Shown: piece by piece, positions 14,346 to 64,000 of the stretch
Position numbering within the stretch: the stretch's first letter is position 1
Layout: each line of letters begins with the position of its first letter
From: a virus
Taxonomy: Duplodnaviria > Caudoviricetes
Length of the DNA stretch: 64,000 nucleotides
Direction: 5' to 3' (one strand)
Virus record (IMG/VR): IMGVR_UViG_3300022543_000001
Coordinates: 1 to 64,000 of that record
Notes under the pieces: generated by a model
What the model was told of the DNA's origin: nothing
The model's input: only the letters and a program-made list of their open reading frames with translations
Database searches by the model: none
Position numbers and translations under genes: made by a program

Positions 14346-14356
14346 AAATTAAAGTT

Positions 14357-15526
14357 ATGAGTCAAGTTCAATTAAATGTAGAAGAATTAAAAAGTTTTAT
14401 TAAACACATGGTTAATAATAACCAACACATTCAGTCTGAAGGAAAAGTTCCTGTGGCTATTAATATTGAAGGTGATGCCGGTCTAGGTAAAACTTCTGCT
14501 ATTATGCAGTTGGGTAAAGAGATGGGTATGGAAGTTGTAAAACTTAATTTATCTCAGTTAGAAGAATTAGGTGATTTAGTAGGTTTTCCTGTGAAAGAAT
14601 TTCAAATTCAAAATGCTGAAGGTAAGACTACATGGATTAATGAATCTCAGATATCTGCAGCAAGTGCAAAAGGTTATAAAGTTGTAGATAAGAGAATGTC
14701 ACATGCTGCTCCTGAATGGATTCAGGGTAAAGGAGAAGGTGGATTCTTGATTTTAGATGATTATACTCGTGCTGATCAAAGATTTATGCAAGCTACCATG
14801 GAAATCTTAGATAGACAAGAATATGTTTCTTGGAAGTTACCTAAGAACTGGCATGTTATCTTAACAACCAATCCAGACAATGGTGATTATAATGTCACAA
14901 GTCTAGATGTAGCTCAGAAGACTAGATTTATCTCTGTTGAGTTAAAGTATGATTCTGAAGTATGGGCTAAGTGGGCAGAGAGTGCAAACATTGATGGTAG
15001 ATGTATTAACTTCATGTTGATGCACCCGGAATTGGTAACTCAAAGAATTAATCCAAGAGCTATCACTACGTTCTTTAATGCTATTAGTTCTATTCCTAAG
15101 TTTGAAAGTGACTTACCTCTAATTCAGATGATTGGTGAGGGTTCAGTAGGAGTAGACTTTAGTTCTATGTTCACTATGTTTATTAATAACAAACTAGATA
15201 GAATTATTAGTCCTGCAGATATCTTAACTAAAGATGAGACATATGTGTTAGGTTCTTTGACTTCTGCAGTAGGGGAAGATAATGATTTCCGTGCAGATAT
15301 CTCTAGTGTGATTGCAACCAGAATTATTAATTATTCTCTTGCTTTAGCTGATAAGACATCTATTAGTAAACCAATTATTGATAGAATTGCTAAGTTGACT
15401 ACAGACTGTAAAGCATTCACAGATGATTTGAGATATTACATGGTGAAGGAGATAGTTAATGGTAATAAAATTAAATTCTCACAATTGATGATGAATCAAA
15501 ACGTGGTGAAGATGGCTGTAAAGTAA
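14357..15526 (+). CDS. MoxR-type AAA+ ATPase
   Basis: GDAGLGKT, ILDDYTRA, TTNP, QKTRF, INPRA. Confidence 0.88.
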   Translation: MSQVQLNVEELKSFIKHMVNNNQHIQSEGKVPVAINIEGDAGLGKTSAIMQLGKEMGMEVVKLNLSQLEELGDLVGFPVKEFQIQNAEGKTTWINESQISAASAKGYKVVDKRMSHAAPEWIQGKGEGGFLILDDYTRADQRFMQATMEILDRQEYVSWKLPKNWHVILTTNPDNGDYNVTSLDVAQKTRFISVELKYDSEVWAKWAESANIDGRCINFMLMHPELVTQRINPRAITTFFNAISSIPKFESDLPLIQMIGEGSVGVDFSSMFTMFINNKLDRIISPADILTKDETYVLGSLTSAVGEDNDFRADISSVIATRIINYSLALADKTSISKPIIDRIAKLTTDCKAFTDDLRYYMVKEIVNGNKIKFSQLMMNQNVVKMAVK

Positions 15527-47513: not shown

Positions 47514-50500
47514 TTATTTGTTATATTGCCAAAAAGGACTAGTAGTTATACCACTGAAATTTTGTTGAGCATTTTGAATAGCTTTTTGATCTCCTGTTTG
47601 ATGGATTCTTCTAAACATATCAAAATTCATAGCAGCTGCTTGATTTAAAATTGAATTCATATTTTGTTCTTTTCCTTCAATTTCTCTACCACTTCTAACA
47701 TCTACTCCAAAATATTTATAATGTGTTTTTTTAGAACCATCAGGCATCATCTCATAGAATTCTCCTACACCTGAGTAATCTCCAACTCCTGGTGTTTTCT
47801 CAATAGTATATCTACCATTACCAGCAGGATCAGTATACTTAATTGGCCCCTGTCTTAGGAGGACTTCTGTTGGAGTTGGGAACTGTTTTGAAAATAATGG
47901 ATTGCTGTCCCAAATATTTTTAGGTGCAACGAATGTAATACCATTTTGGTAAATAGCATCAATCTTATTTTTAAGAGCTTTTTCATCTCCACCATCTGCC
48001 ATACCTTTAATAACCTTTTCAATTACATCTCTCGGAGCTGTAAGTTTCATAGATCCAAGCTTAGTACTTTCCATTGACATAGTTGTAGCATGAACCATAA
48101 AAGGTTTTAATTCAGGATCTGAATTTAATCTTGATTGAAGTTCTCTTACAATAGCCGTTGCTTCATTTTGTGTAACACCTGTATTTTCCCAATCCTCATC
48201 TGAACCAGGTAGTTTATTTCCATTAATAGAAATTCTAAACTTGTTTTTATCTTGATTCCAGTTTGTACTTAAAATAGTATTAAACATTTGAGAAGCTGAC
48301 TGATTTCCTGGATCCCAAGCAATACCTGGAGCAACCATCATAGTACCGGTTTCTGCAGCTAAAGCTACTTTATTACCAGATCTTTGAGTTCCACTAATAG
48401 GATATGTTTGTAAACCTGTTTCAGGATTCATATCTTTTGCAAGTTCTTCAAATGATTGATCAAATACATCAGCTACCCAAGAAGCTTTATCTTTTACAGT
48501 TTCTCTACCATCACCTAACATTCTTGGAAGTGCTGTTAATGGAACAACATAGTTATACCATTTTGAATCAGCTTTTTGATTTGTAGATTTTCCAACACTA
48601 AAACCTAGAATAGATGATATTTGTGCATCTACTTCAGGAGCCATTGCTTTAAATTCATCTGTATTACCATGACTATCTAAAGCATATTTAGACATCATCA
48701 AGTTTACAGCTTGTTGAATTTTAGCATCATTAATATTTCTGTATGCTTCTGGATCTTTAGTTTTTACATTACTTACAATGTACTTTAAATCCTCTGTAAA
48801 TTTATTTCTGATTTTATCATAATTGTTATTTCTAACAACATTCAAAGCATCATCAGTTCTAGCAAGTTGATCTAACTTAATCATAGACTGATCTTTAAAA
48901 TACTCTTGTGCCAATCCACTTCCAGAGTGTTGAGCAGTCCAACTTTGCATCAAATTATTTACATTGTATATCTGACCTGAGTTAACAGTTCTAGTTGTAA
49001 ATCCATTAGGATCAGCTTTATAGCCACTCCAAATTTGATTCCATACTTTAACAATGTCTGGTTTGTAATTTTTACTTCCTTCTTTTAAAATTCTTTTTGC
49101 AGTTGGTTCACTTGGATTTAATTTTAATACAAATTGAGCTAACTGAGCAGCAGTAAATGAATCACTAGTCACACCATTATTGATAAACTTCATCAAGTTG
49201 TTTACCGGTTCAGTAGCATTTTGACTAATCATTTGATCTCTCATGTATTTATTTGCTGCATCAAGAGACATTTCTTCAGCTGTTGTTCCATCTGGTGTAA
49301 CCATGTTAATATTAAAACCTTGACTTTGAGGGTTTGTGTTTAATTGACCATCTTTAGTAAAGCCCCAATATCCTTTTTTAACATTGTAGTCTACAGCTTT
49401 TTGATACATTTTTGCTTGATTTGCCCTATCTATTTCAGACTCTCTATCAAGGTGAGCTTGTTGTTGTCTAGCTCTAGCATGTTTGTCTCTTAAAAACTCT
49501 AAACCTACAGGATTAGCTTTGTATTCAATTTCTTGATTAAGTGTTGCATAATTACCAGATGCTCTCATTATATCTTGTTCTGCAAAAACAGAAGCAAAAC
49601 CAGCATCTACTTTTAATCTAGCTAATTCTATGTCACTTAAAATATCTTCATCATAACCTTGTGCTGCACTTGTAGATTGTTTATCATTAATCTGATCATT
49701 TAACTTTTGTGTATTATCAGCTACAGCAGTGTTAACAGCAAACAAATCTTCTAATGATCTACCATAGTTACTTTGTTGTGGATTTACATTACCATTATTC
49801 ACATCTTTTTCAAGATTACCTTGCAAACTTTTGGTAGTATTTAAGTCATCTTGAGCCTTAACATTTTTATCAGAAGCATAATTTTTTAACCAATCATATT
49901 TTTCTTTAATGTATTGTTTCTCTGCTTCTGATTTATTACCTCCAAACTTAGATGCATTTTGATTAGCATAGTTCATTCTTTCTACAAATGCTCTTTCTCT
50001 ATACATATCTTGTATATCTGGTCTATTTGCATACTCAGCCATGAACATATTCTGAAGTGTTGGTAATATTAACTCTCCATTTTTCTTTCTTACTAAATAT
50101 AAACCAGATTGATCTGGAAGTTGTGATACAGCTCCTACATTAAACTTTTTAGCTAAGTCCATGTATTCTTGAACAGCATTTACAAAAGGTGTATACTGAG
50201 CATTAGTCATATTTAAAGTACCTTCTAAATCAGCATCTTTAAACATTTGTCTTCTTAACTCTAAACCTTGAATACCAGTTCCCCACCATTGTTTTCTTTG
50301 CTTTTCATCTTGAGAATTTTTTAATGCATTAGCTGAATTGTAAGTATTCTTCCAATTTTTAGTCCAAGCCATATCTTTCATAAGATACTTATCTTCATAA
50401 AAAGGTTTGAATACTTGCATAGCTTGATTTACATTCTGCTCTAGAGAAAGGTCAAGTCCGGATACTCTTTTTAAATTAAAGTCAATTTGTTTTAAAAGCT

Positions 50501-50696
50501 CATCTTTTTTCTTGATGTTTAAATCATGTGTTAAGTCAGCACCATAAAGTTGACCATATAGATTATTCAGTGATTGCCAGTTTGAATCATACTGAGTTTG
50601 TTTAGTCTGCATCAAGCTTCCGTAGAAGTTTAAGTCAGGCTGAAACGGCTGATAATCTGGTATATAATCTGTAACCCCTTGTAAATACGTTGCCAT
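47514..50696 (-). CDS. Internal virion/ejection-type protein
   Basis: 1060 aa, no Cys seen, N-terminus YIPDYQPFQPDLNF; first gene of the giant ejection cluster. Confidence 0.6.
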   Translation of the reverse strand: MATYLQGVTDYIPDYQPFQPDLNFYGSLMQTKQTQYDSNWQSLNNLYGQLYGADLTHDLNIKKKDELLKQIDFNLKRVSGLDLSLEQNVNQAMQVFKPFYEDKYLMKDMAWTKNWKNTYNSANALKNSQDEKQRKQWWGTGIQGLELRRQMFKDADLEGTLNMTNAQYTPFVNAVQEYMDLAKKFNVGAVSQLPDQSGLYLVRKKNGELILPTLQNMFMAEYANRPDIQDMYRERAFVERMNYANQNASKFGGNKSEAEKQYIKEKYDWLKNYASDKNVKAQDDLNTTKSLQGNLEKDVNNGNVNPQQSNYGRSLEDLFAVNTAVADNTQKLNDQINDKQSTSAAQGYDEDILSDIELARLKVDAGFASVFAEQDIMRASGNYATLNQEIEYKANPVGLEFLRDKHARARQQQAHLDRESEIDRANQAKMYQKAVDYNVKKGYWGFTKDGQLNTNPQSQGFNINMVTPDGTTAEEMSLDAANKYMRDQMISQNATEPVNNLMKFINNGVTSDSFTAAQLAQFVLKLNPSEPTAKRILKEGSKNYKPDIVKVWNQIWSGYKADPNGFTTRTVNSGQIYNVNNLMQSWTAQHSGSGLAQEYFKDQSMIKLDQLARTDDALNVVRNNNYDKIRNKFTEDLKYIVSNVKTKDPEAYRNINDAKIQQAVNLMMSKYALDSHGNTDEFKAMAPEVDAQISSILGFSVGKSTNQKADSKWYNYVVPLTALPRMLGDGRETVKDKASWVADVFDQSFEELAKDMNPETGLQTYPISGTQRSGNKVALAAETGTMMVAPGIAWDPGNQSASQMFNTILSTNWNQDKNKFRISINGNKLPGSDEDWENTGVTQNEATAIVRELQSRLNSDPELKPFMVHATTMSMESTKLGSMKLTAPRDVIEKVIKGMADGGDEKALKNKIDAIYQNGITFVAPKNIWDSNPLFSKQFPTPTEVLLRQGPIKYTDPAGNGRYTIEKTPGVGDYSGVGEFYEMMPDGSKKTHYKYFGVDVRSGREIEGKEQNMNSILNQAAAMNFDMFRRIHQTGDQKAIQNAQQNFSGITTSPFWQYNK

Positions 50697-50710: not shown

Positions 50711-50755
50711 TAAATCTATTAAAATTTTTTAAGTTTACTAAACCTTTAAAGTTTA
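50711..50755 (-). promoter_or_regulatory. Candidate promoter (TAAACTTT ... TAGATTTA)
   Basis: Same layout as 58537-58581; -7-like box 14 nt before ATG 50696. Confidence 0.45.
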
Positions 50756-53700
50756 TAGTAAAAATGGAAGCCATGAACTGATGTCAATATAACCACTATT
50801 GTTACCTATTGAACCACCTCTTTTTGCTTCTTGTTGTGTTCCATACATAGTGTTTGCCATATTTGGATCTGGTGCAGTACTTGTTTTACCTGACTTACCT
50901 TGTGAATTCATAACTCTTGACATACATGCTGAATGATCTGTTGCATTAGGATTGTTTTGTTTACACCAATCCATTGCTTCTTGCATTGTCATTGCACTAC
51001 TAGCACCTTGTCCATTAACTGTTTTAGGAGTTGGATTAAAAGCCATTCTTCCACCTACAGTAGGATCAACTTTATAGTTAGGATACATCTGATTTAATGC
51101 ATCTGTTTTCCACTTATTAGTAATACCTTGAGTATAATAGTTTCTAACATTGTTTCTCATTGCTAATTTAGCATTGTCAAACTGTTGATTAGCAACTGTA
51201 TTTTGATCATATAATCTTTGATTAGTTGCTTGATTCAACATACTACTTTGATTCCTAATGTCATTTGCTTTTAACTCAAATTGATTAGCAATATTAACAT
51301 TAGCATTATTATACTTAGACAATATATCAGCAGCATTTTTAGCAGCAGCACCCTGAACACTTGATGATCTAGCAGACAAAGCTTGAGGTCCAGCAAACTG
51401 TGCCATAGCATTTGTTTGAATAGCTGCTTGTTCAGCATTAGCACCAAGTTCTCTTGTAGGATCTTGAAATACTGGTCTTGGTACACCCAATGCTACTGGA
51501 GGTGCAGCTGGCATTCTTTTCTTAAGACCCATTAGATCTCCAAATGCTCCTGTAGTTTTGATAGTATCTTGTAACCACATTCCAGGAGGTTGTCCTGGTA
51601 CAGGGATAGTTGAATCTTCTTGACAAGGAGGACAATTACCATTTGCATCAGCAGTCATCTCTATTACAGTACCATCAGCTTTTTGACATGGACATGGTTT
51701 ACCTTTTGGTGGTTCACATGTACAGTTACCTTGAGCATCTTTTGGTTTATAATTAGGTTTATTTGGATCATCACATTGACATGGTTCTTCTCCAGGTACA
51801 TCCTCAAATTTTAAATCATGTACAGCTTGAATTTCTCCTTGTGTTGTGTTTGTATAGTATGCATCAATAGGAGAAATGTTTGTTACATTCATTCCTTTCT
51901 CATCACTGAAACCAACTTGTTTACCATAAGGATTAAATCCGGAGAAACTTGTAATACCTAATAATGCTGTTTGTGTATCTTCATCATAGTTACCTGGATT
52001 TGCATCAAGGTCTTTCATTAATTTATCAGCTGCAATAAACCCAGCCTGTTGTATATAGGCTTCTTCAGCATAAGCATCATCAGCTGAACCTGATAAGTAT
52101 TTATTACCAGCTTTATCAGTTTTTACTTTTCTTTCCATAGGTAAACCCATGTCTTTTGAAAGCTTATCTAATGAAGTAAAACCAGATGACTCAACTTTTT
52201 TATACATCTCTGTGATCTCTTGATCAGTTGCATTTGGATTTGTTTGTTTTATAATACTCTTAAATCCTAATTCATCTCCATCAATTTTACCATTTTTATT
52301 TTTATCTGGTTGATCTTCCATTGGTCTTAATTCACCATTTCCATCTTTGTACAAATGAGGACCAAAACCTTTTACTCCAAGTTTATCACCGTAAGTTGTA
52401 GTTTTCAAGTTACGTTCTTGCATTCTAAGATACTTAGATACAATCTCGTCATCAGTTAAGTCGTTAGGATCTTTTTTAAATTTCTTTTGATAAGTTTCAG
52501 AATATGAATCTCTTTTTCCTTTGTATGCTTCTTGATCAGCTAATGTTCCTCTTACTTGTTTTGCAAATGCAGCTTTAGCTTTAGGATCATTAAATGTTTG
52601 TTGCATTGCTTGAAATGTAGCAGCAGCAACTTGGTTACCATTCCATTTATCTAAATCAGTTCCTGTATATTTATCAAAACCTGTAGCAGAAACTTTTTGC
52701 TCTACTCTTCTACCATCAGGTTGTATAACATAAATTTTTTCTTTACCTCTACCTCCTTGAACATAAGCTCTTCTTAATGCTTGTTTAAACTCTTCATCTG
52801 TTTTATAATCAGCACGTTTAACTTCAACACCATCTCTAGCTTTAACCATACGTGTTATAGGACCAGATCCAGGAATTCTTTTTGGTCTACCTTGATAGTT
52901 TTGAGACATACCTGCACCCATTGACATACCATACTCTGCTTCTGGTATATCATAGAAAGGCATATCATAACCACCCATAGACATTCCATAGGCAGCCATT
53001 GGTGGTGCCATTTGTTCTTCTTCCATAGGAGGTTGTTGACCCATTCCTTGTTCTTGTCCACCTTGACCTTGAGACATAACTTCTTGAATAAGACCTACAG
53101 CCTCTTCTTGAGCTACACCCATTTGAGTAAATATTTGCACTATAGCTTCAGGTGGAAGACCATTCTGTAATAAACTCATAACAACTTCAGCAGGTTCAGC
53201 ACCTCTTTGTAGAGCACCTTGAACTTCTTGCATAATCTGCATCATCTCATCTTGACCACCACCTTGTTGTTGACCTTGAGCTTGTTGTTCCATCATTGCC
53301 ATTTCTTCAGGAGATGGTTGTTGCATACCTTCTGCAGCTCTTCTTAATCTTCTCATACCACCACCATACATCATCATCATCTCTTGTTGAGACATAGGTT
53401 GTTCTTGAGCTTGTGCAACTGGTTGACCTTGATTCATTTCTTGAGCTTGCATCATTTGATTTTGCTCATTCTCTGATTCCATTGTCTGATCTGAATTCTC
53501 CTGTTGTTTCATTTGTTTCTTCAACTGGTCATTCAATACACTAATCTCTTTAGATGGTAAGATCTGTTCTTCTGTAAGACCTCTAGCTTCCATACAAGGT
53601 TTAGCAACAGCAGGAATTCCTTGAGGAAAACCTTTCATTGATTCTTGTGCCAAAGCTAAACATCCTAACTTAATGACATATTTTTTCATCATTAATTCAG

Positions 53701-54178
53701 CAGACTTTCTTTCTATAGCATCAGTATCAGGATCTTCTAAGATTTTTCTGTACTTCTGGATATCATATTGTTTAGCAAGTTCTGCAGGAGTAAAAGATTT
53801 ACCTTTACCTGTTTTACCAAACATAGAAAGTACATTAGGATCTTTTATCAGCATACCTCTAGTATCACTGAAAATAAAAGTATCTTCTGGTAAGTTTAAT
53901 GGAACACCGCCTGCACTATGTCTTGGACCTTTAATGATTTGTTGTTCCGGCATTCCATCACCATTGATGTCTCCGTATACAGTTTCACCACCCTCTGCTT
54001 CCAAGTTAGCCTCATCTCTAGGTACTGCAGTAATGTATTTACTTGCAATAAGTTTTGGTTTTCCTATATAAGCATTATAATCTGCTCCACCCATTGCTGG
54101 AACATCATTTACTAAAGCACCTTGGACTTGGTATCCAGTTTTTGCTTGAGGTACTTTTTTAATTCTAACTTTTATCAT
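50753..54178 (-). CDS. Modular putative virion cargo protein (Q/M-rich, Cys module)
   Basis: N-terminus KVRIKKVPQAKTG; NLEAEGGET...GPRHSAGGVP domain; low-complexity Q/M region; PCQC..CTC module. Confidence 0.65.
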   Translation of the reverse strand: MIKVRIKKVPQAKTGYQVQGALVNDVPAMGGADYNAYIGKPKLIASKYITAVPRDEANLEAEGGETVYGDINGDGMPEQQIIKGPRHSAGGVPLNLPEDTFIFSDTRGMLIKDPNVLSMFGKTGKGKSFTPAELAKQYDIQKYRKILEDPDTDAIERKSAELMMKKYVIKLGCLALAQESMKGFPQGIPAVAKPCMEARGLTEEQILPSKEISVLNDQLKKQMKQQENSDQTMESENEQNQMMQAQEMNQGQPVAQAQEQPMSQQEMMMMYGGGMRRLRRAAEGMQQPSPEEMAMMEQQAQGQQQGGGQDEMMQIMQEVQGALQRGAEPAEVVMSLLQNGLPPEAIVQIFTQMGVAQEEAVGLIQEVMSQGQGGQEQGMGQQPPMEEEQMAPPMAAYGMSMGGYDMPFYDIPEAEYGMSMGAGMSQNYQGRPKRIPGSGPITRMVKARDGVEVKRADYKTDEEFKQALRRAYVQGGRGKEKIYVIQPDGRRVEQKVSATGFDKYTGTDLDKWNGNQVAAATFQAMQQTFNDPKAKAAFAKQVRGTLADQEAYKGKRDSYSETYQKKFKKDPNDLTDDEIVSKYLRMQERNLKTTTYGDKLGVKGFGPHLYKDGNGELRPMEDQPDKNKNGKIDGDELGFKSIIKQTNPNATDQEITEMYKKVESSGFTSLDKLSKDMGLPMERKVKTDKAGNKYLSGSADDAYAEEAYIQQAGFIAADKLMKDLDANPGNYDEDTQTALLGITSFSGFNPYGKQVGFSDEKGMNVTNISPIDAYYTNTTQGEIQAVHDLKFEDVPGEEPCQCDDPNKPNYKPKDAQGNCTCEPPKGKPCPCQKADGTVIEMTADANGNCPPCQEDSTIPVPGQPPGMWLQDTIKTTGAFGDLMGLKKRMPAAPPVALGVPRPVFQDPTRELGANAEQAAIQTNAMAQFAGPQALSARSSSVQGAAAKNAADILSKYNNANVNIANQFELKANDIRNQSSMLNQATNQRLYDQNTVANQQFDNAKLAMRNNVRNYYTQGITNKWKTDALNQMYPNYKVDPTVGGRMAFNPTPKTVNGQGASSAMTMQEAMDWCKQNNPNATDHSACMSRVMNSQGKSGKTSTAPDPNMANTMYGTQQEAKRGGSIGNNSGYIDISSWLPFLL

Positions 54179-54186
54179 CGGGTTCT

Positions 54187-57100
54187 TTATAAATATTCAA
54201 CTTGTCCTCCTGCTGCTAAGAATTGTTCTAATTCTTCTGGAGTCATATATACTTCTTCGTCATCCATGTAGCCACCATTTTGCATGTAACCACCATATTG
54301 AGCAGCATTACTATTTGCATAATTACCAAATGTTGCTCTACTGTTTCTGTCGGATCCCATTTCATCATATCTAAACATACCTGTTTTAGAACCAATATCT
54401 CCCCAGTCACCTTTATCAGTTTGAGTAGATGCCATTACATTAGCCATTGGATCAAACTTGTCTAACAACATGTTATTTTCAATAGGTGCATTCTGTGCTC
54501 TTTCATACATACCTAATCCAAAATTAGCTGCACTATTAAAAGCATTAACTCCTGCTTCACCATCAAAGTTTCTAGCTGTTTTACGTTGTCTTTCTACACC
54601 AACATATTGATTTTGATTAGGTGCAGGTGTGGGTTCAGGTGCTTGTGGAATAATTTGTTGACCTTGACTACCTACTGTATTACCAGTATTTGCAGTTTCA
54701 GCATAAGAACCTGTTCCAGTCTGAGTTATAAAACTAAATGGGTTTTGTTGTTGAGGCATTTTATTTGGTGCAGGAGCTCCAAACAAATCATTTTCAAATT
54801 GAGATTGTTGAGAATATGGATTATAGCCTGATTGATTTTGACCAGCACCCATACCAAAGCCAGTACCAACTTCAAAAGCACCACCCATTCTTTTAAAAGA
54901 AGGATTTTTAACTCTATCCACTAAACTTTTTAATGTACCATATGCATTCTTTACATTATCAACTGCATCTCTAGCACCATAATAAGCTTGATCAGTCTTG
55001 TATCTAGCACCACGTCCTTGTTCATATCTCTCTGCTTGTCTTAGATTTCTTTGACCACGTCTAGTTTGTTCATCCCATTCTTGATCACTAAATTGAAATC
55101 TTTCTTTTGCTGCATCTTCTAAACGATCTCTTCTACTTGTCTTTTCAGGTTTCTCATTATCCTTGTAATTAACCATAGACCAACCATCTTGAAGTGCATC
55201 TTTTACCATTCTTTTAGTAATACGACCAGGATTAGATTTGTTTCCTGAACCTCTACGGTTATCTAACATACCTTCAAGTTGTGCTAAATCACCCATAGGA
55301 ACTCCAGTACCATCACCATCAACTTGATAGATATCAATCCATTTTTTTCTACCACCTAGCAAACCTTTCTTGGTTGTATAACTAGCAACAGGTTTATCTG
55401 GAATAAGACCATTGTAAGATCTACCATCATTTAAATAATATGGAGTACCCTTTTGTTTAACCCAAGATCCAGCTGATCCAACTATTGGATTCCATGGTAA
55501 TAAGTTACGTCCGTAACTACCTGGATTTGGAACTTGTGTAAAGTTATAATTCATTTTTGCTATAGGAATACACATTTTATATTTATCATTCCAAACAGTA
55601 CCAGGACCACACTGAGTCTTTTTTGGTTGCAAGCTTGCACTTGAGTTTAATACACAAGCACTTCCATTCCAGGTATATCCTGCTGGACACTTCTCAGTAC
55701 TTCCTTCTTCTTCTTCCTCTTGACCTTCTCCACTGTAAGCAGCATAATCATTCAAAGTCTTATTATAGAAGTCAAGATAGTTATCATAATCTTCTTTTCT
55801 AGAAGGGTCACTTTTCCATGATTCAAAATCTCCTTCTGGATTTGCAGCTTGCCAATCTTCTTTTTCTCCTTCTGCCCACTGATCAAATGGTAATTCATCA
55901 GCCACTGTTCTATGTTCTCCAGCTTGATTTAAAATATTTATACCATCTCTAGCTTGTTCTAGATCATATGGTTCATAGTATTCACTCTCATCACCACCAT
56001 ATATAAATCTAACAAGTGGTTCTTTAGCATCCATATCCACAAATCCTCCAAATGCTGCAGTAAAATCTGTATTCATTTGTTCTTCTTCAGCAAGATTTTC
56101 TTTATAACCATCTTGCATCAGCATGTTTAAAATCTTTGGATTGTTCTGAGCATTCTTGTAAATATCTTTTGATATAGCTTTATTAGAATTATTTTTTAAT
56201 GTACTAATAAAAGAAGATTTCATGTTAGCAACATCATTTGTCAAAGTATCTTTTCTATTACCTTGACCTAAAGTTGCATCTCCACCTTCAGCATACATAG
56301 AAACCATTCTATCAATAAATCTATTTTTAGAAACACCACCTTTTGCAAAGTCATTTGGCAAAGCTACATTTTGTGTATTTGGATTTACAATATTTGAATC
56401 TTGATATCTATAGTAATTATAATCACTTGGAGTTTGTCCTTTTAAGAACTTCATACTATCAGGTGTCTGTAATGTATTTGGATCAACAGTAACTCCTTCT
56501 CTAATAGGAGTAGGATCTAAAACTCTACTTGGTCCTACATCAGTACCACATGTACATTTACCAAGAGCATTTTTAGGTTGGAAGTTTGGTGCATTAGGAT
56601 CCTCACATTGACAAGGATGTGCTAATGCATCATAAGTATTATAACCAACATAACCTAAACCACCACCAATAAGTGTAGTCTTTAAACCTAATCTATACTT
56701 ATAGTTAATAGCATTCTTAATATCAGATGCTGTTTGTGAATAAGGAATAGCAGCAGGATCTTGAATGTTTGGTCCAAGAGCCATGTTTGCATAACCATAT
56801 ACAGGTTGATCAATATTTTCAATTCCTTTTGCACCAGTTCTGAATAATTGGTTTAATCCAGTTGTTCCATATGTTTCTAAACCTCTACCAATTTTTCCTC
56901 TATTACTTAAATCATTCCATGTAGTTGGAGGTAAACCTGTTATATCAGTTCTTCTTACACCATTTATATCATCAAAATAATTAGGAAATGGAGTACGATT
57001 CATATCTTTTAAAGTTATATCACCCAACATTCCTGTTAATGAAGAACCAATTGGTCTTGTAACTTTTGATTTTGTTTGAACACCTGTTGTTAATGGATTA

Positions 57101-58521
57101 CCTAATGGATCAAATACATTTAAACCACCAGTTTCAGGATTTTGATTATAATAGAATCTGTTTTTAAATGTAACCTCTTTAGCTTTTGGAGGAGTTGTAC
57201 CAAAAGGTAAACTTTGATTAGGACCAAAAGTATATTTTAATTCAAAAAATTTATTTCCTGACTCATCTTCCCCACCAATAACTTTTGTTTGTGGAGGATA
57301 TACACCACTAACTAAGCCCTCATGTCTAGACATAATGCTGTTAAGCTCTTCTAATGTAAAAGGTTCATTATTACCGTACTGTAATTTACTAATTAAATCT
57401 TTAACATCTGCTTGATCTAATACTAACCTATCAGCTTGTAAGCTACCATCAGTTCCACCAGCATATGTTCCGTTCTGACTAAACACTCCTGTTTTTGGAG
57501 TAGCTCCATTAATAACATTCCAAAGTTCAGTTCTATTCTGTGTAAATGGAGTAGCTAATTTTGGAGCAAACTTTCCTCCTACATAAGGTAACCTAGTCAT
57601 TGCATCACCAATACCAGTAAATACAGGTAAAGCTTTACGTACTGTAGATATATTAGATAAAGGATTAGCTTTGTTAGCATATCCAACAGTTGGTATGTAC
57701 TCAGCTAATTTTTGAAGTGCTGATTTAACAGGAGGTGTTTCTAATCCTAATCGTGCTTGTGGTAAATATTCTTGTGGTTGATAAGAATCAGATGAACTTC
57801 TGTAGTCACCCAGATAAGATGCTAGATCTGGAAATGCTTGCATCTCTTGTGTACCTGGTGTCATAGCAATTAAATCTTCCATAGAGAAAGGTTTTTCTTC
57901 AGGTGTTCTTCCTGGAGTACCATACTGACTCATTACAGCTTGTTCTTTACTTGGTTCTTGATTAGGATTCATATCTTCAAATTCAGGATACTCTCCACCA
58001 TCATCAAAGTAACCACCATATTTAAAAGCTTCTTCCTCTTCATCCTGTGTCATTTCCAAAGCAGAATTCTGATTCATCTGTGCATCTTCTTCATCATATA
58101 GACCACCATCAGATATTGCTAATTCTTCTTGTTCTGCATCTGAAGCTGCTCTTTCATTTTCTTCATCTGCTTGTTGTTGTGGATCAACACCTGGTTCTGG
58201 TTGAGCTTTATCTTTAACTACTTCAGGATCTACATAACCTTCTTCAGCAAGTTTAGACATAGCAGATTTAATAAGCATCACAGATGTATTCTCATCTAAT
58301 GCATACTCATTAATAAGTTGATTATATAAAATATCAGGTGTAGCATCATTTTTTAATGATATATAAACCTGATCATATATTTGATTTAGTTTAGCTGGAT
58401 CCATACTTGGAGCTGCTACTTCCATACCCATTGCTGCTTTTTTTAAAAACTCAGCAGTTTTGTTATAGTACCCTGGAGTTTCACCTGGAAGTGCTTTTCT
58501 AATCCTTACTTGTTTCTTCAT
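54187..58521 (-). CDS. Modular putative virion cargo protein (multiple xxGG motifs, Cys modules)
   Basis: 1444 aa; FKYGG, FAKGG, YAEGG, AAFGG, AQYGG; CPAGYTWNGSAC and CGPGTVWNDKYKMC. Confidence 0.65.
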   Translation of the reverse strand: MKKQVRIRKALPGETPGYYNKTAEFLKKAAMGMEVAAPSMDPAKLNQIYDQVYISLKNDATPDILYNQLINEYALDENTSVMLIKSAMSKLAEEGYVDPEVVKDKAQPEPGVDPQQQADEENERAASDAEQEELAISDGGLYDEEDAQMNQNSALEMTQDEEEEAFKYGGYFDDGGEYPEFEDMNPNQEPSKEQAVMSQYGTPGRTPEEKPFSMEDLIAMTPGTQEMQAFPDLASYLGDYRSSSDSYQPQEYLPQARLGLETPPVKSALQKLAEYIPTVGYANKANPLSNISTVRKALPVFTGIGDAMTRLPYVGGKFAPKLATPFTQNRTELWNVINGATPKTGVFSQNGTYAGGTDGSLQADRLVLDQADVKDLISKLQYGNNEPFTLEELNSIMSRHEGLVSGVYPPQTKVIGGEDESGNKFFELKYTFGPNQSLPFGTTPPKAKEVTFKNRFYYNQNPETGGLNVFDPLGNPLTTGVQTKSKVTRPIGSSLTGMLGDITLKDMNRTPFPNYFDDINGVRRTDITGLPPTTWNDLSNRGKIGRGLETYGTTGLNQLFRTGAKGIENIDQPVYGYANMALGPNIQDPAAIPYSQTASDIKNAINYKYRLGLKTTLIGGGLGYVGYNTYDALAHPCQCEDPNAPNFQPKNALGKCTCGTDVGPSRVLDPTPIREGVTVDPNTLQTPDSMKFLKGQTPSDYNYYRYQDSNIVNPNTQNVALPNDFAKGGVSKNRFIDRMVSMYAEGGDATLGQGNRKDTLTNDVANMKSSFISTLKNNSNKAISKDIYKNAQNNPKILNMLMQDGYKENLAEEEQMNTDFTAAFGGFVDMDAKEPLVRFIYGGDESEYYEPYDLEQARDGINILNQAGEHRTVADELPFDQWAEGEKEDWQAANPEGDFESWKSDPSRKEDYDNYLDFYNKTLNDYAAYSGEGQEEEEEGSTEKCPAGYTWNGSACVLNSSASLQPKKTQCGPGTVWNDKYKMCIPIAKMNYNFTQVPNPGSYGRNLLPWNPIVGSAGSWVKQKGTPYYLNDGRSYNGLIPDKPVASYTTKKGLLGGRKKWIDIYQVDGDGTGVPMGDLAQLEGMLDNRRGSGNKSNPGRITKRMVKDALQDGWSMVNYKDNEKPEKTSRRDRLEDAAKERFQFSDQEWDEQTRRGQRNLRQAERYEQGRGARYKTDQAYYGARDAVDNVKNAYGTLKSLVDRVKNPSFKRMGGAFEVGTGFGMGAGQNQSGYNPYSQQSQFENDLFGAPAPNKMPQQQNPFSFITQTGTGSYAETANTGNTVGSQGQQIIPQAPEPTPAPNQNQYVGVERQRKTARNFDGEAGVNAFNSAANFGLGMYERAQNAPIENNMLLDKFDPMANVMASTQTDKGDWGDIGSKTGMFRYDEMGSDRNSRATFGNYANSNAAQYGGYMQNGGYMDDEEVYMTPEELEQFLAAGGQVEYL

Positions 58522-58536
58522 AACATGTTATATATA

Positions 58537-58581
58537 TAAATATACTAAATTTTAATTTAATCAATACACTTTAAAAGTTTA
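58537..58581 (-). promoter_or_regulatory. Candidate promoter (TAAACTTT ... TATATTTA)
   Basis: -7-like box 15 nt before ATG 58521; upstream TAAACTTT at the same distance as in 50711-50755. Confidence 0.45.
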
Positions 58582-61500
58582 CACATCTTCAATAATGTAA
58601 CCATCTTCAATGTACTTATCTATTTCTTTTTTAGATAAATTAGTTACCACACCACCTTTTTTATAATCTCCTCTAAACCCTGTATTCCATCTGTTCATTA
58701 AAGACTTTTTATATGCTTCCATATCTAAATAATCTTCAGCAGACATATTCTTCAAATCATTAAATTTAAAAGTGGGATCAATAATTCCAATTTGATTACC
58801 TTTACCACCAGCCCATATACGCATATCTAATCCAGAACCTTCAATACCCTTTCTACCTGGATCAGCAAAATAAACCTTATTAGGATCTAAATTATGACGT
58901 ACTCTTCCATCTTGATTATATATACGGTTTTTACCAAGTATATACTGCTCAAATAAATCTTGCCAGTTTCCTGAATCAAGATCCATATCTTGTTTTACTT
59001 TAAACTGATAACGACCATATTGTTGTGGATTAGGAGTACCTGCAAAATATAAACCATCCATTCTAGACATATCTGGTAAACCTGCTCTATAACCATATTG
59101 ATCCATAGGAACACTTGTAGCTTGATAAGCAGCTAAAGAAAGAGGATCTTCCATATTAACACCTTTAGCAATCATGTTTTCATATTCACTTAAAGGATTA
59201 CCACTTGCTATTTCATACATATTATATTGACCATGGTTTCCATAATTATCTAATCTATTCCCTATAGGATGAAATTGTCCAGATACTTGTCTAAAACCTG
59301 TTCTATCATAGTCAATTGCACTTTGCATAAATTTCTTCAAACTCTCATCTGACTTAGCAGCTTTTAACATATCTGCTCCCATAGTCTGAGGTCCTGCATA
59401 ACCTAATTCTTTTAAACCCTGAATAATATTTCTTCTTTCTGTAAAACCAGGTAAAGTATTTATAATAGGAGTGACTATTTTTGTTGAAGGTTTGATAGTA
59501 CCACTTAAACTTTCTGCAATAACTGGTAAACCAGTTCTAGCTTTAACTAAACCACCATTATCATAACCAAGTAATGGATAACTACCTGTTCCAAGATAAC
59601 CTTTGGGATTTTGTTCTAGTATAGAAAACTCTCCTAAACCTAATCTTTTACCTACTTTATTTATAGGATTGGTTATAGATTCATAAATTGGTTTTGCTCC
59701 AGTAATATTTGGATTACCTAGAACAAGACCAGAACCAGGTGTGGCTGCATTGTATACACCTGTAAATCTAGAAGGTATATTACCAACTGCTACAGTACCA
59801 GGAGTACGTAATGAGTTTAATGTTTGTAATGTACCTACAGCAGGTTTTATACCTTTTATAATAGGAGCTGCACCCAATGCTCCTTCAAATGCATTTAAAG
59901 CAGCAGTTCCGTAATTACCTTGTTGAAAATTATCATAGGCATTAGAAATATTTTCTGGAGTTTTTGCTACAAACCCTGCAGTAAACAAAGGACTATTAAA
60001 TGCTTGTAATCCTTGTTTCAATCCTTGCTTTAATCCTGGTGCTGAACCTAATGCATTAAAGCCTTTCATGATACCTCTTTTTGTACCTATATCAAATAAC
60101 TCATCTCCTACAGCACTTAAAAATTCTCCTTTGTCATAACCTTTTCTTAAATTGGTTCCAATCTTAAAAGGATTTAAAGCTTGAAGCAAAGTATAATCTC
60201 TAATTATAGCAAGAGGATTATCATTAGGCATAAGTCCTGCATTCTCATCACCAAATTTTTTTGCAATATCTTTTCTTGTTTCATAACTTTGTGCATTATT
60301 TCCCCACATTTCTTCACGAGGATTCATTGCAAAATATGCAGCATCAAATGGATTAGCTAATACATCTCTTATTTTAGAAGCTGTAGTGTTTTCATTAATA
60401 CCAGTTCCTTGTTTTATTGTGTCAGGATTTAGTTCACGCATAAGCATAGCATCCACACTACTGTTTAATATATCATTGTAGGTTTCCTTTTTATTACCAG
60501 TTTTTTGTGTTAGTAATTTTTGCATTGCTTCATCAGGGTTCTCTTGAAATGATTTTAATATTTCAAGTTTACCTTGTTGTGTAGAACCTACTTTATCTAA
60601 TGCTTGTTTAAGAACTTGTTTAGTAGCATCTGATCCAAAATTACCAATGTATGCTGCATAAGCATCATTAAAGTCTTTAGCTTTAGCTGTGTTTGCAGCT
60701 GCTAGTGCATTCTTTTGATTTAAAGTTTGGTTTAATGATGCATTGTTTTGTCTAACATTAGCCATAGCATCATCTTTTGCAAAAGTAAGTCCATCATACT
60801 GACCTGCTTTTCCATACTTATCCATCCAATCTGAATAAGCTTTTTCACCTCTTTCAGTTTTTTGAGATTGATAATTAATAAAGTCTCCTAAGTTATTTGT
60901 ACCACTATGATATCTTTTCTCCCATGCAGCCATTGGATCATCAGATTCTAAAAATATTTTACGATCCTGATCAACCTTAGCTCTATCAGTTCCAGGTAGA
61001 GAATCCATACTTGAAACAAGACTTGCATATGCATCATCTATTATTTTATTTGTAGGTTTTTCAAATGTAGACTTAAGTCCAGATTGTGTTCCTATTTTAG
61101 GAGAGAGTTCTTTTATAACTTTGTCTACGGGTTTACCTTGCTCAATAGCTTTTGTTAGTATACTTTTAGTTACTTCAGCTTCATAGTTAGCTTTAGCTGC
61201 TCCCATTAAATCTCCAAGTTGTTCTTTAACTTGTTTAGGATCTAAACCCCAGTAGTTTTTAAATTGATCTGCTTGAAAACCATTTGTAATAATTCTATCT
61301 TTAACTATGTTTAAAGGATATAATTCAACAAAGCCATCTTTCTTATGGACTAGAAAATTTTTCTTAAGTTCCTCTAATGTTTCTGGTGAATACTTAGATT
61401 CAGATTCCCTTACATAAGGTTCTATTTTATCTTGTTTCTTAGATTTAGCAAATGTATCTAGATATCTAGCACTGTCATCTGCAACCCATCTATTATGTTC

Positions 61501-61818
61501 TTCATTTGTTTTACTACGTATATCATTTATGTCTTTAACTAAACTTATTTTTCTTGCTAAAGATTTAGCTTCAAAGTCTTCTTGTTCTTTTTTCATCTCT
61601 GCTTTAGAAGCAGCAATATATTCTGATTCAGGTAAACATTGTCCATTAAACTCATACATACCTGGAGGACATCCTTCACCTCTCATATAACCTGGCAATG
61701 ATTCATTCCAATATGATGGTTGCTGTACTCCTTGTACTTCTACCATAGGGGTATTATCTGATTTGACAATCTTACCTTTTTTAGCTTGTGGAATACTTGT
61801 TATTCTGTACTTTGCCAT
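58579..61818 (-). CDS. Modular putative virion cargo protein
   Basis: N-terminus KYRITSIPQAKKG; YDNGGLVKARTG; C-terminal tag YKKGGVVTNLSKKEIDKYIEDGYIIEDV. Confidence 0.65.
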   Translation of the reverse strand: MAKYRITSIPQAKKGKIVKSDNTPMVEVQGVQQPSYWNESLPGYMRGEGCPPGMYEFNGQCLPESEYIAASKAEMKKEQEDFEAKSLARKISLVKDINDIRSKTNEEHNRWVADDSARYLDTFAKSKKQDKIEPYVRESESKYSPETLEELKKNFLVHKKDGFVELYPLNIVKDRIITNGFQADQFKNYWGLDPKQVKEQLGDLMGAAKANYEAEVTKSILTKAIEQGKPVDKVIKELSPKIGTQSGLKSTFEKPTNKIIDDAYASLVSSMDSLPGTDRAKVDQDRKIFLESDDPMAAWEKRYHSGTNNLGDFINYQSQKTERGEKAYSDWMDKYGKAGQYDGLTFAKDDAMANVRQNNASLNQTLNQKNALAAANTAKAKDFNDAYAAYIGNFGSDATKQVLKQALDKVGSTQQGKLEILKSFQENPDEAMQKLLTQKTGNKKETYNDILNSSVDAMLMRELNPDTIKQGTGINENTTASKIRDVLANPFDAAYFAMNPREEMWGNNAQSYETRKDIAKKFGDENAGLMPNDNPLAIIRDYTLLQALNPFKIGTNLRKGYDKGEFLSAVGDELFDIGTKRGIMKGFNALGSAPGLKQGLKQGLQAFNSPLFTAGFVAKTPENISNAYDNFQQGNYGTAALNAFEGALGAAPIIKGIKPAVGTLQTLNSLRTPGTVAVGNIPSRFTGVYNAATPGSGLVLGNPNITGAKPIYESITNPINKVGKRLGLGEFSILEQNPKGYLGTGSYPLLGYDNGGLVKARTGLPVIAESLSGTIKPSTKIVTPIINTLPGFTERRNIIQGLKELGYAGPQTMGADMLKAAKSDESLKKFMQSAIDYDRTGFRQVSGQFHPIGNRLDNYGNHGQYNMYEIASGNPLSEYENMIAKGVNMEDPLSLAAYQATSVPMDQYGYRAGLPDMSRMDGLYFAGTPNPQQYGRYQFKVKQDMDLDSGNWQDLFEQYILGKNRIYNQDGRVRHNLDPNKVYFADPGRKGIEGSGLDMRIWAGGKGNQIGIIDPTFKFNDLKNMSAEDYLDMEAYKKSLMNRWNTGFRGDYKKGGVVTNLSKKEIDKYIEDGYIIEDV

Positions 61819-61820
61819 TA

Positions 61821-63974
61821 CTATATTTTTTCAAACGTATAACCTAATTTTTGTAACTTCTTCATAGTAGCTTCATCTATCTCATCTCCAAGTTCATAAT
61901 CAATAGAACCTCCTTGTTGAGCATATTGCATATCTTCTTGAGAATCATTTTTTGCAATATAGTTAAATAGATCTTTTAATCCTTGATCATCTTTTACAAC
62001 TTTAAAAAGATTGTATAATGCATTATCATAGTTAGGATTATTTCTATCTAAAGCACCACTCTTCTCTGCCTCAGATCTCCAAGCCTTAATATCTTCATCT
62101 GTAATAACCTGTGTTGGTTGAAGACCTTTGCTTTGTCTTACTTCAAATATTAAAGACTGTATGTTATCTTGACTAGGATCTGTAAGATAATCGTAATCCT
62201 CACGAGCTTGTCTTTTTTCATCACCTTTTAAATGACCCCAACCTTCTTCAAAAGATTTTAAATTAGGTTGAATAATAATTTGTTCAGCAGGTAATATTTT
62301 ATCACCATATTTATCCCAAAGTCTAGTTCTTTCCTCATGTGCAATAGTTGCATTTAATTCTTTTGGATCGGACTTTAAACTTTCTTTTAGTAATATTTTT
62401 GAAGCTTCACCATCATCATTATAAACCAATTCTCCCATTACACTTGGATCATCAGCAATTATATCTGTGTATTCATATGGTACAGATTGATTTAACTCTT
62501 CCAATAGTGGAGATTCAGGATTATATGCAGGTAAAAATTGTTTTAATGTACGTTCATATGATTTATTACCTATTTGATCAAAAGGTAATTGTCTATTGCT
62601 ATACCAGTTGCTAAAATAAGAATTTGCATTTATAGGTACTATATTAGGAATATCCTCTACCATAGGTGAATCAGACTCAATTGGTGCAGGTCCTCCATTT
62701 CTTGCTTGGTTTAAAGCACCTCCATATTTTCTTTCAGCATCTATTAACTTTTGTTTATTACCAGTAGTTAAATATTCTTCAAATGATTTTACTATTTTCT
62801 TTTCAGCTTCGTTTTGTTGTTCTTGATTTTTTGAAGCAGCTTTCAAATATGACATTATCAAAGCATCATCAAGATCTTTATATAACTCATGCTGTTTTAT
62901 TTTATTTACATCACTCTCATCAAAAACTGTTATCTCTCTTGGATCAAAAGCACCTGTAAAACCTTTATCTCTTAATGCATCAGCAGCTTGCATTTGACTT
63001 GTTCTAATCAAATCTTCATTACCTGTTGGATTAAAACTAGTTCTTAAAGCTTGTTCATATTCATATGCATTTTGATAATTTCTTGGATCTACACGATTTA
63101 TTAAACCTACTTTTTTTATAAAATCATTTGTCAATGGTGCATTATAATTTATAAAGTTTTCAGGATTATTAAATAAAGCTTCTGAAACATATGGTGTAAA
63201 TGTCTTAGTTTGAGGCACTAAACCATAACCACCTAAACTACTCACTCTAGCGGCAGATGTAGCAAAGTCAGGATGTGGTGTTAAATACACACCACCTTCT
63301 TGATTACCCAAACCACTACCTCTAAAAGATCTATCAAAATTTTTAAATGATGTTTTATGTCCAGTTAAACCACCAGTTATTATTGGTTGATTACCATCAA
63401 ACCTGATTGGATTGTATCCACTATACTGAGTTAAGAAATCACTCTCTAACATAGGAACTGTTTCCAATAGTTTTTTTGTTTGCTGTAAATCTAACTTAGG
63501 CAATTCAAACTGAGCACCTGGTATAGCAGCTGGTAGATTAATCTGATTTGATAAACCTTTTAAATAATTATCAGCTACATAGTTTAAAGCAGGTAGATTT
63601 TTACTTACAGATCCTAAACTTCTAAGTGATTTTATTAAATTAGAATTTACTGCTACACCTAATTCAGGCCCAACTACTTTAGCAACACCACCTAAATTAT
63701 ATCTTCTAGTAAGTTTATAATTTGGAATTCTTATTTCACCTGTATTACTTCCTGGAATAAGTTCTAAATAAGCTTTATCTGTTAAACCTCTACCTTGTAA
63801 ATCTGCATTCAGTCTACTAATCATTTCTTCAGCAGCCTTTGGATTCCATTGTCTTACTGAACGAAATCCTTGTGGTACTCCTTCAATACCATCAAATAAT
63901 TTACTGTGTTCAGCTGTAAAATTTAAAGGGATATGATTTTCAAATTTCATGTCCCAATCTTTTTTATTTGCCAT
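61821..63974 (-). CDS. Modular polyvalent-like protein (ADP-ribosyltransferase-like and degenerate zincin-like segments)
   Basis: Segments bounded by YNLGG, KYGG..QARNGG, YAQQGG; FKNFD..GSGLG..GGVYLT..LRDKGFTG..EITVFD; IAHEERT. Confidence 0.65.
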   Translation of the reverse strand: MANKKDWDMKFENHIPLNFTAEHSKLFDGIEGVPQGFRSVRQWNPKAAEEMISRLNADLQGRGLTDKAYLELIPGSNTGEIRIPNYKLTRRYNLGGVAKVVGPELGVAVNSNLIKSLRSLGSVSKNLPALNYVADNYLKGLSNQINLPAAIPGAQFELPKLDLQQTKKLLETVPMLESDFLTQYSGYNPIRFDGNQPIITGGLTGHKTSFKNFDRSFRGSGLGNQEGGVYLTPHPDFATSAARVSSLGGYGLVPQTKTFTPYVSEALFNNPENFINYNAPLTNDFIKKVGLINRVDPRNYQNAYEYEQALRTSFNPTGNEDLIRTSQMQAADALRDKGFTGAFDPREITVFDESDVNKIKQHELYKDLDDALIMSYLKAASKNQEQQNEAEKKIVKSFEEYLTTGNKQKLIDAERKYGGALNQARNGGPAPIESDSPMVEDIPNIVPINANSYFSNWYSNRQLPFDQIGNKSYERTLKQFLPAYNPESPLLEELNQSVPYEYTDIIADDPSVMGELVYNDDGEASKILLKESLKSDPKELNATIAHEERTRLWDKYGDKILPAEQIIIQPNLKSFEEGWGHLKGDEKRQAREDYDYLTDPSQDNIQSLIFEVRQSKGLQPTQVITDEDIKAWRSEAEKSGALDRNNPNYDNALYNLFKVVKDDQGLKDLFNYIAKNDSQEDMQYAQQGGSIDYELGDEIDEATMKKLQKLGYTFEKI

Positions 63975-64000
63975 ATTTAGTAAAAGATTGTATGAATCTA

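Follow-up and report, generated by a model that had tools for sequence, protein, structure and literature searches.

The stretch of viral DNA considered in this work (64,000 nucleotides, positions 1 to 64,000 of IMG/VR record IMGVR_UViG_3300022543_000001; hereafter the window) is the start of a 90,203-bp phage genome, and its far end carries, on the minus strand, four long genes whose proteins are punctuated by a recurrent glycine-bearing sequence, here called the junction tag. The phage, uncultured and known as a metagenomic genome, is a crAss-like virus, since Crass_capsid, crAss_MUZ and CrAss_Ring_1/2 match genes upstream of these four. Scans with Pfam and PHROGs place there the portal, the Crass_capsid major capsid protein, CrAss_Ring_1, CrAss_Ring_2 and the muzzle protein (1846 amino acids (aa), genome 65357-70897, crAss_MUZ match), after which come the four genes, of 1178, 1079, 1444 and 1141 codons, and downstream of them giants of 1060, 2464, 3315 and 1978 codons. 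In Bacteroides phage crAss001 the muzzle gene, gp44, is followed by the cargo proteins gp45 and gp46 and then by giants associated with the RNA polymerase (RNAP; Bayfield et al. 2023, PMC10172136). Because gp45 and gp46 likewise come after the muzzle gene, the name of cargo genes, which an earlier note on this DNA had given to the four, is a fair reading by position; they stand where crAss001 encodes its virion cargo proteins. The four proteins, with a combined length of 4842 aa, are probably carried inside the particle. Neither megablast nor tblastn of the region and its proteins found a match in 50,697 phage records, among which the clade has no cultured relative.

Cargo gene 1 (P0103) spans genome 61821-65357 and encodes 1178 aa, its C-terminal 726 codons lying in the window (61821-64000, minus strand); what had been described as a 717-aa protein is this window-truncated C-terminal part. 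Cargo genes 2 (P0002, 1079 aa, 58579-61818), 3 (P0003, 1444 aa, 54187-58521) and 4 (P0004, 1141 aa, 50753-54178) follow on the same strand, as do all features of the four genes given below. Pfam and PHROGs recognise nothing in the four proteins but a SET domain (27.1 bits, cut-off 22.4) in the N-terminal part of cargo 1, outside the window, and a sequence search of solved structures with the cargo proteins found nothing. The ART-like and zincin-like segments named in the earlier note have no Pfam match in cargo 1, and the IAHEERT of this protein is not an HExxH. The cargo 1 family is hypervariable, ranging from 716 to 2062 aa with SET, Amidase_2 (PF01510), YkuD (PF03734), ADPrib_exo_Tox (PF03496) and ART-PolyVal (PF18760) among its cassettes, and in relatives one chain combines cell-wall enzymes (Amidase_2 or YkuD) with SET or ART domains. 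Its domain content makes cargo 1 a polyvalent protein as understood by Iyer et al. 2017 (PMC5512222).

The tag is composite. Half 1 consists of an aromatic residue or methionine, up to two further residues and two glycines (aromatic/Met-x(0-2)-Gly-Gly), and half 2 reads [LIV]-P/x-x-Ala-x-x-Gly, usually followed by a hydrophobic residue; between the halves stands an acidic/aromatic spacer of 1, 5, 7 or 10 residues. Examples of the composite form are FIYGG-DESEYYEPYD-LEQARDG, SMGG-YDMPFYD-IPEAEYG, YDNGG-LVKARTG and YGG-A-LNQARNG. Relatives swap half 2 for x-x-GG at the same position, KARDG/VEV becoming MDLGG/EVTV and KKAQDG becoming KKSMGG. Against a background of 26-28%, half 2 is followed by a hydrophobic residue in 80-92% of its occurrences in the 1444-aa and 1141-aa families, and in 46% in the 1178-aa family. 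The motif peptides from which the tag was first suspected are all present where the earlier note had placed them, e.g., YNLGG at 63687-63701.

That YNLGG (residues 553-557) is a half-1 tag of cargo 1 and, judging from relatives, a cassette start. Further along the same protein are the composite tag YGG-A-LNQARNGG (YGGALNQARNGG; residues 878-889, 62691-62726) and the C-terminal tag YAQQGG-SIDYELGDEIDEATMKKLQKLG-YTFEKI (61824-61925), which is kept in distant relatives as a terminal GYTFEKI, whilst residues 322-343, YAKGG-FIVEDISVPK-LTKANLG, set a C-tail-like and an N-head-like element in tandem. Cargo 2, all of whose tags are kept in a 67%-identical relative, opens with the head MAKYRITSIPQAKKG, a half-2 tag kept in distant relatives (61774-61818), carries the composite tag YDNGG-LVKARTG (YDNGGLVKARTG; 59530-59565) and closes with YKKGG-VVTNLSKKEIDKYIEDG-YIIEDV (58582-58665).

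Cargo 3 starts with a 32-aa leader ending KKAAMG/MEV (58426-58521) that is nearly invariant in 97 sequences. It is followed by the double half-1 tag AFKYGG-YFDDGG (57994-58029), with G169 and G170 invariant and with insertions in relatives, and by the half-2 tag YLPQARLG (57745-57768), in which L253, P254 and G259 are at least 90% conserved and where the relative P0092 has a 349-aa insertion. Next come the half-1 tags FAKGG and YAEGG (residues 725-747, 56281-56349), with G728, G746 and G747 invariant; at FAKGG, relatives insert 155-379 aa with tag copies on the flanks. The most frequent insertion site among relatives, at 55942-56052, joins FGG (residues 824-826) and the composite FIYGG-DESEYYEPYD-LEQARDG (839-860), with G842, G843, A857 and G860 invariant. 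The protein ends in QYGG-YMQNGG-...-AAGG-QVEYL (54190-54300), conserved to the last residue and present in distant loci. Cargo 4, with more than 1500 homologues, begins with the head MIKVRIKKVPQAKTG (54134-54178), of which A12, T14 and G15 are invariant in 41 sequences. Its internal tags MMYGGG-MRR-LRRAAEG (residues 269-284), MAAYG-MSMGG-YDMPFYD-IPEAEYG (394-417) and VKARDG (445-450), together at 52829-53374, are all at least 90% conserved, and in its C-terminal AKRGG-SIGNNSG-YIDISSWLPFLL (50756-50827) G1121 and G1122 are invariant.

Gene boundaries themselves fall inside the tag, C-termini being made of half 1 and a tail of 5-6 residues, and N-termini of a basic head and half 2. The C-termini are GG or G followed by YTFEKI, YIIEDV or QVEYL, and the N-termini coming after them are MAKYRITSIPQAKKG, MKKQVRIRKA...KKAAMG and MIKVRIKKVPQAKTG. 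Each gene position retains its own tail/head pair in relatives of about 30-35% identity, and some relatives have GG-YIIED running straight into LPKAQLG, as expected of fused genes. Stop-codon read-through fusing genes 2 and 3, which have a common frame, is ruled out by several stops within their 57-nt spacer.

Counts support the tag in its narrower forms. The broad motif from which the earlier note had argued, [AYF]xxG, stays at the level of shuffled sequences (observed/shuffled 7/7.6, 18/16.4, 32/23.0 and 18/16.1 in the four proteins), and shuffles show no enrichment of GG alone in three of the four. Enrichment does stand for [QK]A[KR]xG, found seven times in the four proteins where about 0.5 is expected, and for aromatic-x0-2-GG, of which the 1444-aa protein holds 11 copies, the expectation being 3.4 (p = 0.003). 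Elsewhere in the genome [QK]A[KR]xG occurs only twice: one copy belongs to a 142-aa head-module protein, the other to the 1978-aa protein, where it falls in a helical stretch. The four downstream ejection/RNAP giants have a single copy, and the contrast drawn with them holds. The 1060-aa protein encoded just after the cargo genes (window 47514-50696, minus strand) is a built-in negative control, with an untagged N-terminus, MATYLQGVTDYIPDYQPF, and neither half-tag pattern in the relative L006.

Conservation is far stronger evidence for the tag than these counts, and it decides the matter. Among 96 homologues of the 1444-aa protein, with identities from 92% down to 29%, the tag glycines are present in 90-97 of the 97 sequences in the midst of variable surroundings. 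When 69 sequences are aligned over its residues 1-900, 25 columns are invariant, and nine of them belong to tags (G169, G170, G728, G746, G747, G842, G843, A857 and G860). Of the seven motifs pointed out earlier in the 1141-aa protein, each is either invariant among 41 homologues or conserved in at least 90% of them, and the tags are retained in the 67%-identical phage as well as in two loci at about 30-35% identity.

The tags are also the places where these proteins gain, lose and exchange segments. BLASTP of the 1444-aa protein against its homologues gave 76 indel junctions in 51 classes, and 47% of the 102 junction ends are no more than five residues away from a tag (13 tags were considered). 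Random placement gives 8.8%, with a maximum of 20.6% in 5000 trials. The flanking alignments in relatives often overlap at the tag, as in a pair of high-scoring segment pairs (HSPs) covering query residues 1-826 and 825-1444. The junction there reads ...QFGG/VPSWYT...[139-416 aa]...DQGG/FVDMD, and therefore each inserted cassette brings its own copy of the tag at its end. Similarly, indels of the 1141-aa family fall at 364-408 and 451, i.e., at tags, and homology blocks of the 1178-aa family break at GG tags, with HSP starts clustered at residue 880, in its composite tag. In five relatives of cargo 1 (P0268, P0281 and P0301 among them) ...NYKLTRxxxxGG runs directly into the C-terminal tag, therefore the approximately 590 residues from GG557 to GG1150 of cargo 1 are a cassette. 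Pfam found merely a sub-threshold CBM_14 in the inserted cassettes of five relatives. The earlier suggestion that the motifs lie at the boundaries of exchangeable segments thus agrees with the ortholog comparison, where cassettes are added, dropped and swapped exactly there, and shuffling of cassettes at the tags is supported. Taken together, a single composite junction tag very probably delimits the modules of all four proteins, and we are equally confident that the four post-muzzle genes encode modular virion cargo proteins of the polyvalent type.

Structure prediction sets the tags outside the folded modules. AlphaFold2 (AF2) with deep alignments, applied to residues 1-900 of the 1444-aa protein and to the 1141-aa protein, gave confident folds for residues 40-100 and 290-620 of the former and 451-760 of the latter. 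Every tag lies within a stretch where the predicted local distance difference test score (pLDDT) is below 50, and in the 1141-aa protein the last residue of KARDG is directly followed by the confident cassette, pLDDT jumping from 43 to 86 at residue 451. The low-confidence stretches equal the folded parts in conservation (0.56 versus 0.55), and it is in the tags that their conserved columns are concentrated. Such conserved tags in stretches predicted not to fold are typical of short linear motifs that a partner reads. Foldseek and VIA-align searches with both AF2 models, including the folded cassettes 290-620 and 451-760, found nothing above noise.

Some further observations concern the same proteins. 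The most conserved parts of the 1141-aa protein (residues 1-109 and 855-1062) could not be folded by AF2 (pLDDT below 50), and its variable middle, 451-760, reached pLDDT 80-93; the conserved ends probably need a partner in order to fold. In a distant relative (L007:9181-12542) the homologue of this protein is split into open reading frames (ORFs) of 60 and 1043 aa by a break within the conserved N-terminal domain; a frameshift or a faulty assembly is the likely cause. The 1141-aa and 1444-aa proteins each have a copy of a Cys-rich module, CQC..D-P-N-x-P-N-[YF]..C-T-C (window 51715-51791 and 56547-56623; 77 nt, 77% identity). A second Cys module, C-P-x-G-x-x-[WF]..C, is found both N-terminally in the 1079-aa protein and at residues 944-986 of the 1444-aa protein; in relatives it turns up again at the edges of cassettes.

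The tag is not confined to the four genes. The 142-aa head-module protein mentioned above (genome 82647-83075, outside the window; L004:4647-5075, minus strand) has KARNG/IEV at residues 30-34 and ends in KQKQGG-AVKRKK. A HMMER search of 1.84 billion representatives returned 72 relatives of 51-279 aa, and this family has a nearly invariant leader of 34 aa, MKKTNKENPxTFFRKANEARQxxVKKSLKKAQDG, that ends at the tag. The leader is 70-100% conserved in 69 representatives, identity drops to 20-50% directly after G34 and the body is hypervariable; 44 of the 69 members end in KKGG and a basic tail (e.g., KKGG-SVKRKK). The 32-aa leader of the 1444-aa protein is built like that of these small proteins. 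Next to the 142-aa gene are five tightly packed Lys-rich ORFs of 51-90 aa (genome 83077-84096, minus strand, outside the window; L004:5077-6096), possibly encoding internal DNA-binding proteins; the one of 80 aa has MAKGG/SI and MKKGG/TV and ends in GAKRKAKKK, resembling an alternative tail of the leader family.

In crAss001 itself, gp45 shows half 1 of the tag. It contains 10 copies of aromatic-x0-2-GG against 2.9 expected (p = 0.0003). Two of its pieces were resolved by cryo-electron microscopy (cryo-EM), 214-245 in the tail barrel and 425-552 on the portal (PMC10172136). The gp45 tags bracket both pieces (P about 0.01-0.02 for random placement), AFGG-W standing at the start of 425-552, and neither piece has a tag further inside. 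Like the cargo genes studied here, gp45 (Pfam PF25725, crAss_CARG1; PMC10172136) is encoded just after the muzzle and has a basic N-terminus; it differs from them in being one protein of 842 aa instead of four genes and 4842 aa, in showing no evident half 2 and in having no detectable similarity to them in sequence or profile. BLASTP between gp45 and the cargo proteins gave nothing, hhalign gave 0.3% probability, shuffled Smith-Waterman comparisons gave z = 2.2 and 1.2, and no profile or fold link to gp45 or gp46 was found. In hmmscan, crAss001 gp45 and gp46 match their own profiles at 2e-66 and 6e-219, and the four cargo proteins match neither crAss_CARG1 nor crAss_CARGO2 (PF25712) at E <= 5; a six-frame search of the whole genome found nothing at E <= 10. 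The paper describing gp45 mentions neither the motif nor any processing and has no word on cleavage or proteolysis (PMC10172136), and the crAss001 text and supplements give neither a gel band nor a terminus for gp45.

What would hold such a sequence constant? Six or more proteins share this conserved linker, which marks over 30 junctions in all, and from this we infer one common reader acting in trans. The explanation we favour is a targeting-plus-processing system of the T4 internal-protein type, where terminal leaders and tails would bring the precursors into the particle, and a virion-associated protease would cut after the tag glycine, before the hydrophobic residue, in the head or after ejection, cutting at the tags thereby freeing the modules. 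In a combined form of this model, the string would stay uncut in the particle and be cut only after ejection. Cleavage at the tags at some stage is our slight favourite over uncut docking, although we would put it at somewhat under an even chance. In its favour are the presence of one tag per cassette, the invariant small residue and the mostly hydrophobic one that follows half 2, the architecture of the leader, which in T4 internal proteins is linked to removal by the head protease and by analogy may be here, and chains that join cell-wall enzymes with modifiers of a cytoplasmic type. The HExxH motifs of two neighbouring giants and published proposals of zincin-type processing, both described below, also speak for it. 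A farther-reaching form, for which we see rather less than an even chance, would make crAss-type cargo, gp45 included, true polyproteins cut after tag glycines by a protease packaged in the virion, so that the resolved gp45 pieces would be separate fragments and effectors (SET, ART and wall hydrolases) would be freed individually in the host.

Several observations weigh against cleavage. No cleavage product has been observed anywhere, and the residue after half 1 is hydrophobic in merely 43-49% of cases. The gp45 model starts at residue 425, so AFGG (426-428) and W429 lie in continuous density (PMC10172136), and therefore that tag is uncut in virions. The authors of the structure treat gp45 as a single chain threaded through the portal (PMC10172136), and the crAss001 RNAP subunits run at full length. 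Cutting the terminal tags would free mere peptides of 5-15 residues, and the termini are conserved to the last residue, which a binding role fits better. Moreover, Pfam and/or PHROGs scans of about 40 of the approximately 67 proteins of the genome detected no peptidase family, remote homologues and the unscanned small ORFs staying possible. The sole candidate protease lies in HExxH-bearing neighbours, where a bare HExxH proves nothing: the 1978-aa protein (window 24227-30163, minus strand) has HEFSH at residue 206 and LysM at 1654-1692, and the 3315-aa protein (30165-40112, minus strand) HEAWH at residue 777, with no Pfam peptidase match in either.

These two sites may correspond to the zincin-like domain that phi14:2 gp65 is reported to have. 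Zincin-type peptidases were proposed as processors of polyvalent proteins (PMC5512222), and zincin-type processing was proposed for the crAss RNAP polyproteins (bioRxiv 10.1101/2020.03.07.982082); the four cargo proteins themselves have no HExxH. A cysteine or serine protease near the capsid genes, which the earlier note had suggested looking for, did not turn up in Pfam/PHROGs scans of the capsid/tail module and the giants. The 427-aa protein between the portal and capsid genes belongs to no family, and a protein atlas gave it weak leads to a scaffold (0.83), T7 capsid assembly (0.81) and a Prp protease (0.81), the last of which was rejected as its score is within the chance range. At window 13032-15526 (plus strand), in the replication module, a 437-aa protein with HELLHIAFGH, whose PHROGs family is labelled 'HNH endonuclease', adjoins a MoxR/AAA-type ATPase, and the two look like a metallopeptidase-like/ATPase couple and not like a nuclease.

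The strongest competitor to cleavage is that the tags, and the terminal half-tags especially, are uncut docking handles or joints that bind a partner, which we consider quite possible, if less than an even bet; capsid docking was also the alternative offered by the earlier note. In one variant, the acidic C-tail (YIIEDV, QVEYL, YTFEKI) would putatively pair with the basic head (MKKQVRIRKA, MIKVRIKKV, MAKYRITSI) of the next protein, which would make the four proteins one colinear string, fixed at the portal and leaving the particle in sequence; in another, the tags would bind the portal, the ring or the capsid interior, like the cargo-loading peptides of encapsulins. Such a role agrees with termini conserved to their first and last residues, with tail/head pairs that stay specific to their position at about 30-35% identity, with natural fusions that retain GG-YIIED-LPKAQLG or GG-FIVEDISVPK-LTKANLG at the joint, with the gp45 tag at the ordered start of the portal-bound domain and the bracketing of both resolved pieces, and with the failure to detect a protease family; the published model, too, is that of an uncut chain across tail and capsid (PMC10172136). 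Yet one or two handles per protein would do for docking, and here every cassette brings its own. Moreover, the ordered docking elements of crAss001 are the segments between tags, the tags being unresolved except for AFGG, and the text of PMC10172136 reports no unassigned peptide density on the capsid interior.

A reader might also be dispensable, were the tags passive hinges or recombination joints, i.e., flexible Gly-Gly linkers tolerating insertion and offering microhomology (TAT GGT GGT and the like). The tags do lie within disordered linkers, GGT GGT predominates at them, and the tag DNA of different genes is 76-77% identical over 33-35 nt, as between the cargo 2 tag at 59530-59565 and the cargo 4 tag at 52819-52851 (76% over 33 nt). 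There is a precedent in the T-even adhesin gp38, where Gly-rich motifs delimit hypervariable segments. Nonetheless, a hinge needs neither an aromatic-x-x-GG or L-P-x-A-x-x-G consensus, nor a conserved acidic/aromatic spacer, nor an invariant 34-aa leader, and with a GC content of 32% the genome prefers GGT and GGA as Gly codons anyway. Homologous exchange would be inefficient with DNA repeats of such shortness and divergence, which rules out recombination via extended DNA homology; we hold this explanation to be improbable. Still far less probable is an artefact of chance or composition in proteins with 9-10% glycine. The shuffled-level frequencies of loose [AYF]xxG and, in three of the four proteins, of GG would fit it, but tag glycines invariant in 41-97 homologues, indel junctions at the tags and a small-protein leader ending at the tag already refute it.

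Known systems offer partial likenesses. In T4, the internal proteins IPI-III and Alt have a capsid-targeting sequence that is removed by the gp21 prohead protease. These share with the leader family described above a short conserved leader, a fixed end motif and unrelated fast-evolving bodies, and differ from it in their site, (L/I)-x-E instead of A-x-x-G/GG, in the lack of site repeats between cassettes and in having a known prohead protease, where none was identified here. Adenovirus adenain and pS273R of African swine fever virus cut virion core precursors after a Gly-Gly that is preceded, at a distance of a few residues, by a hydrophobic one, and the small basic DNA-binding precursors among them recall the MAKGG/SI and MKKGG/TV of the 80-aa Lys-rich ORF. 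However, these belong to eukaryotic viruses and are clan CE cysteine proteases, a family not found here, and the upstream residue is aromatic here and varies in position. Encapsulin cargo-loading peptides are short, Gly-containing, disordered ends of cargo that dock inside an HK97-fold shell; they are single and terminal, not placed at each module boundary, and have no sequence similarity to the tags. Polyvalent proteins, finally, are also large and multi-domain, delivered with the DNA and built from shuffled effector domains; PMC5512222, however, reports no conserved tag between domains (its text never uses the word 'linker') and does not treat crAss phages, and no peptidase domain lies within the four proteins of this work. 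No published description of the tag was found in the literature, including that on crAss polyvalent proteins, processing or cargo; the junction statistics, the exact cassette example, the two-half tag that gene ends divide, the family of small proteins with the leader and the bracketing of the gp45 cryo-EM pieces are new.

How crAss-like phages load and eject about 5 MDa of protein cargo is an open question from the sole virion structure (PMC10172136). A tag invariant over hundreds of uncultured relatives gives a concrete, mutable handle on this loading and ejection, and predicts where in gp45 to seek cut termini or docking contacts. It also offers a rule by which injected effector cassettes could be traced in metagenomes, whatever lies between two tags being a cassette. 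Should the tag turn out to serve in loading or cutting, foreign proteins could be loaded into phage particles with it; and if the polyprotein interpretation is true, the tagged cargo proteins, together with the leader-tagged small proteins, would make up a crAss-wide load-and-cut system for injected proteins, shared by the phages that are most abundant in the human gut and by their marine relatives.

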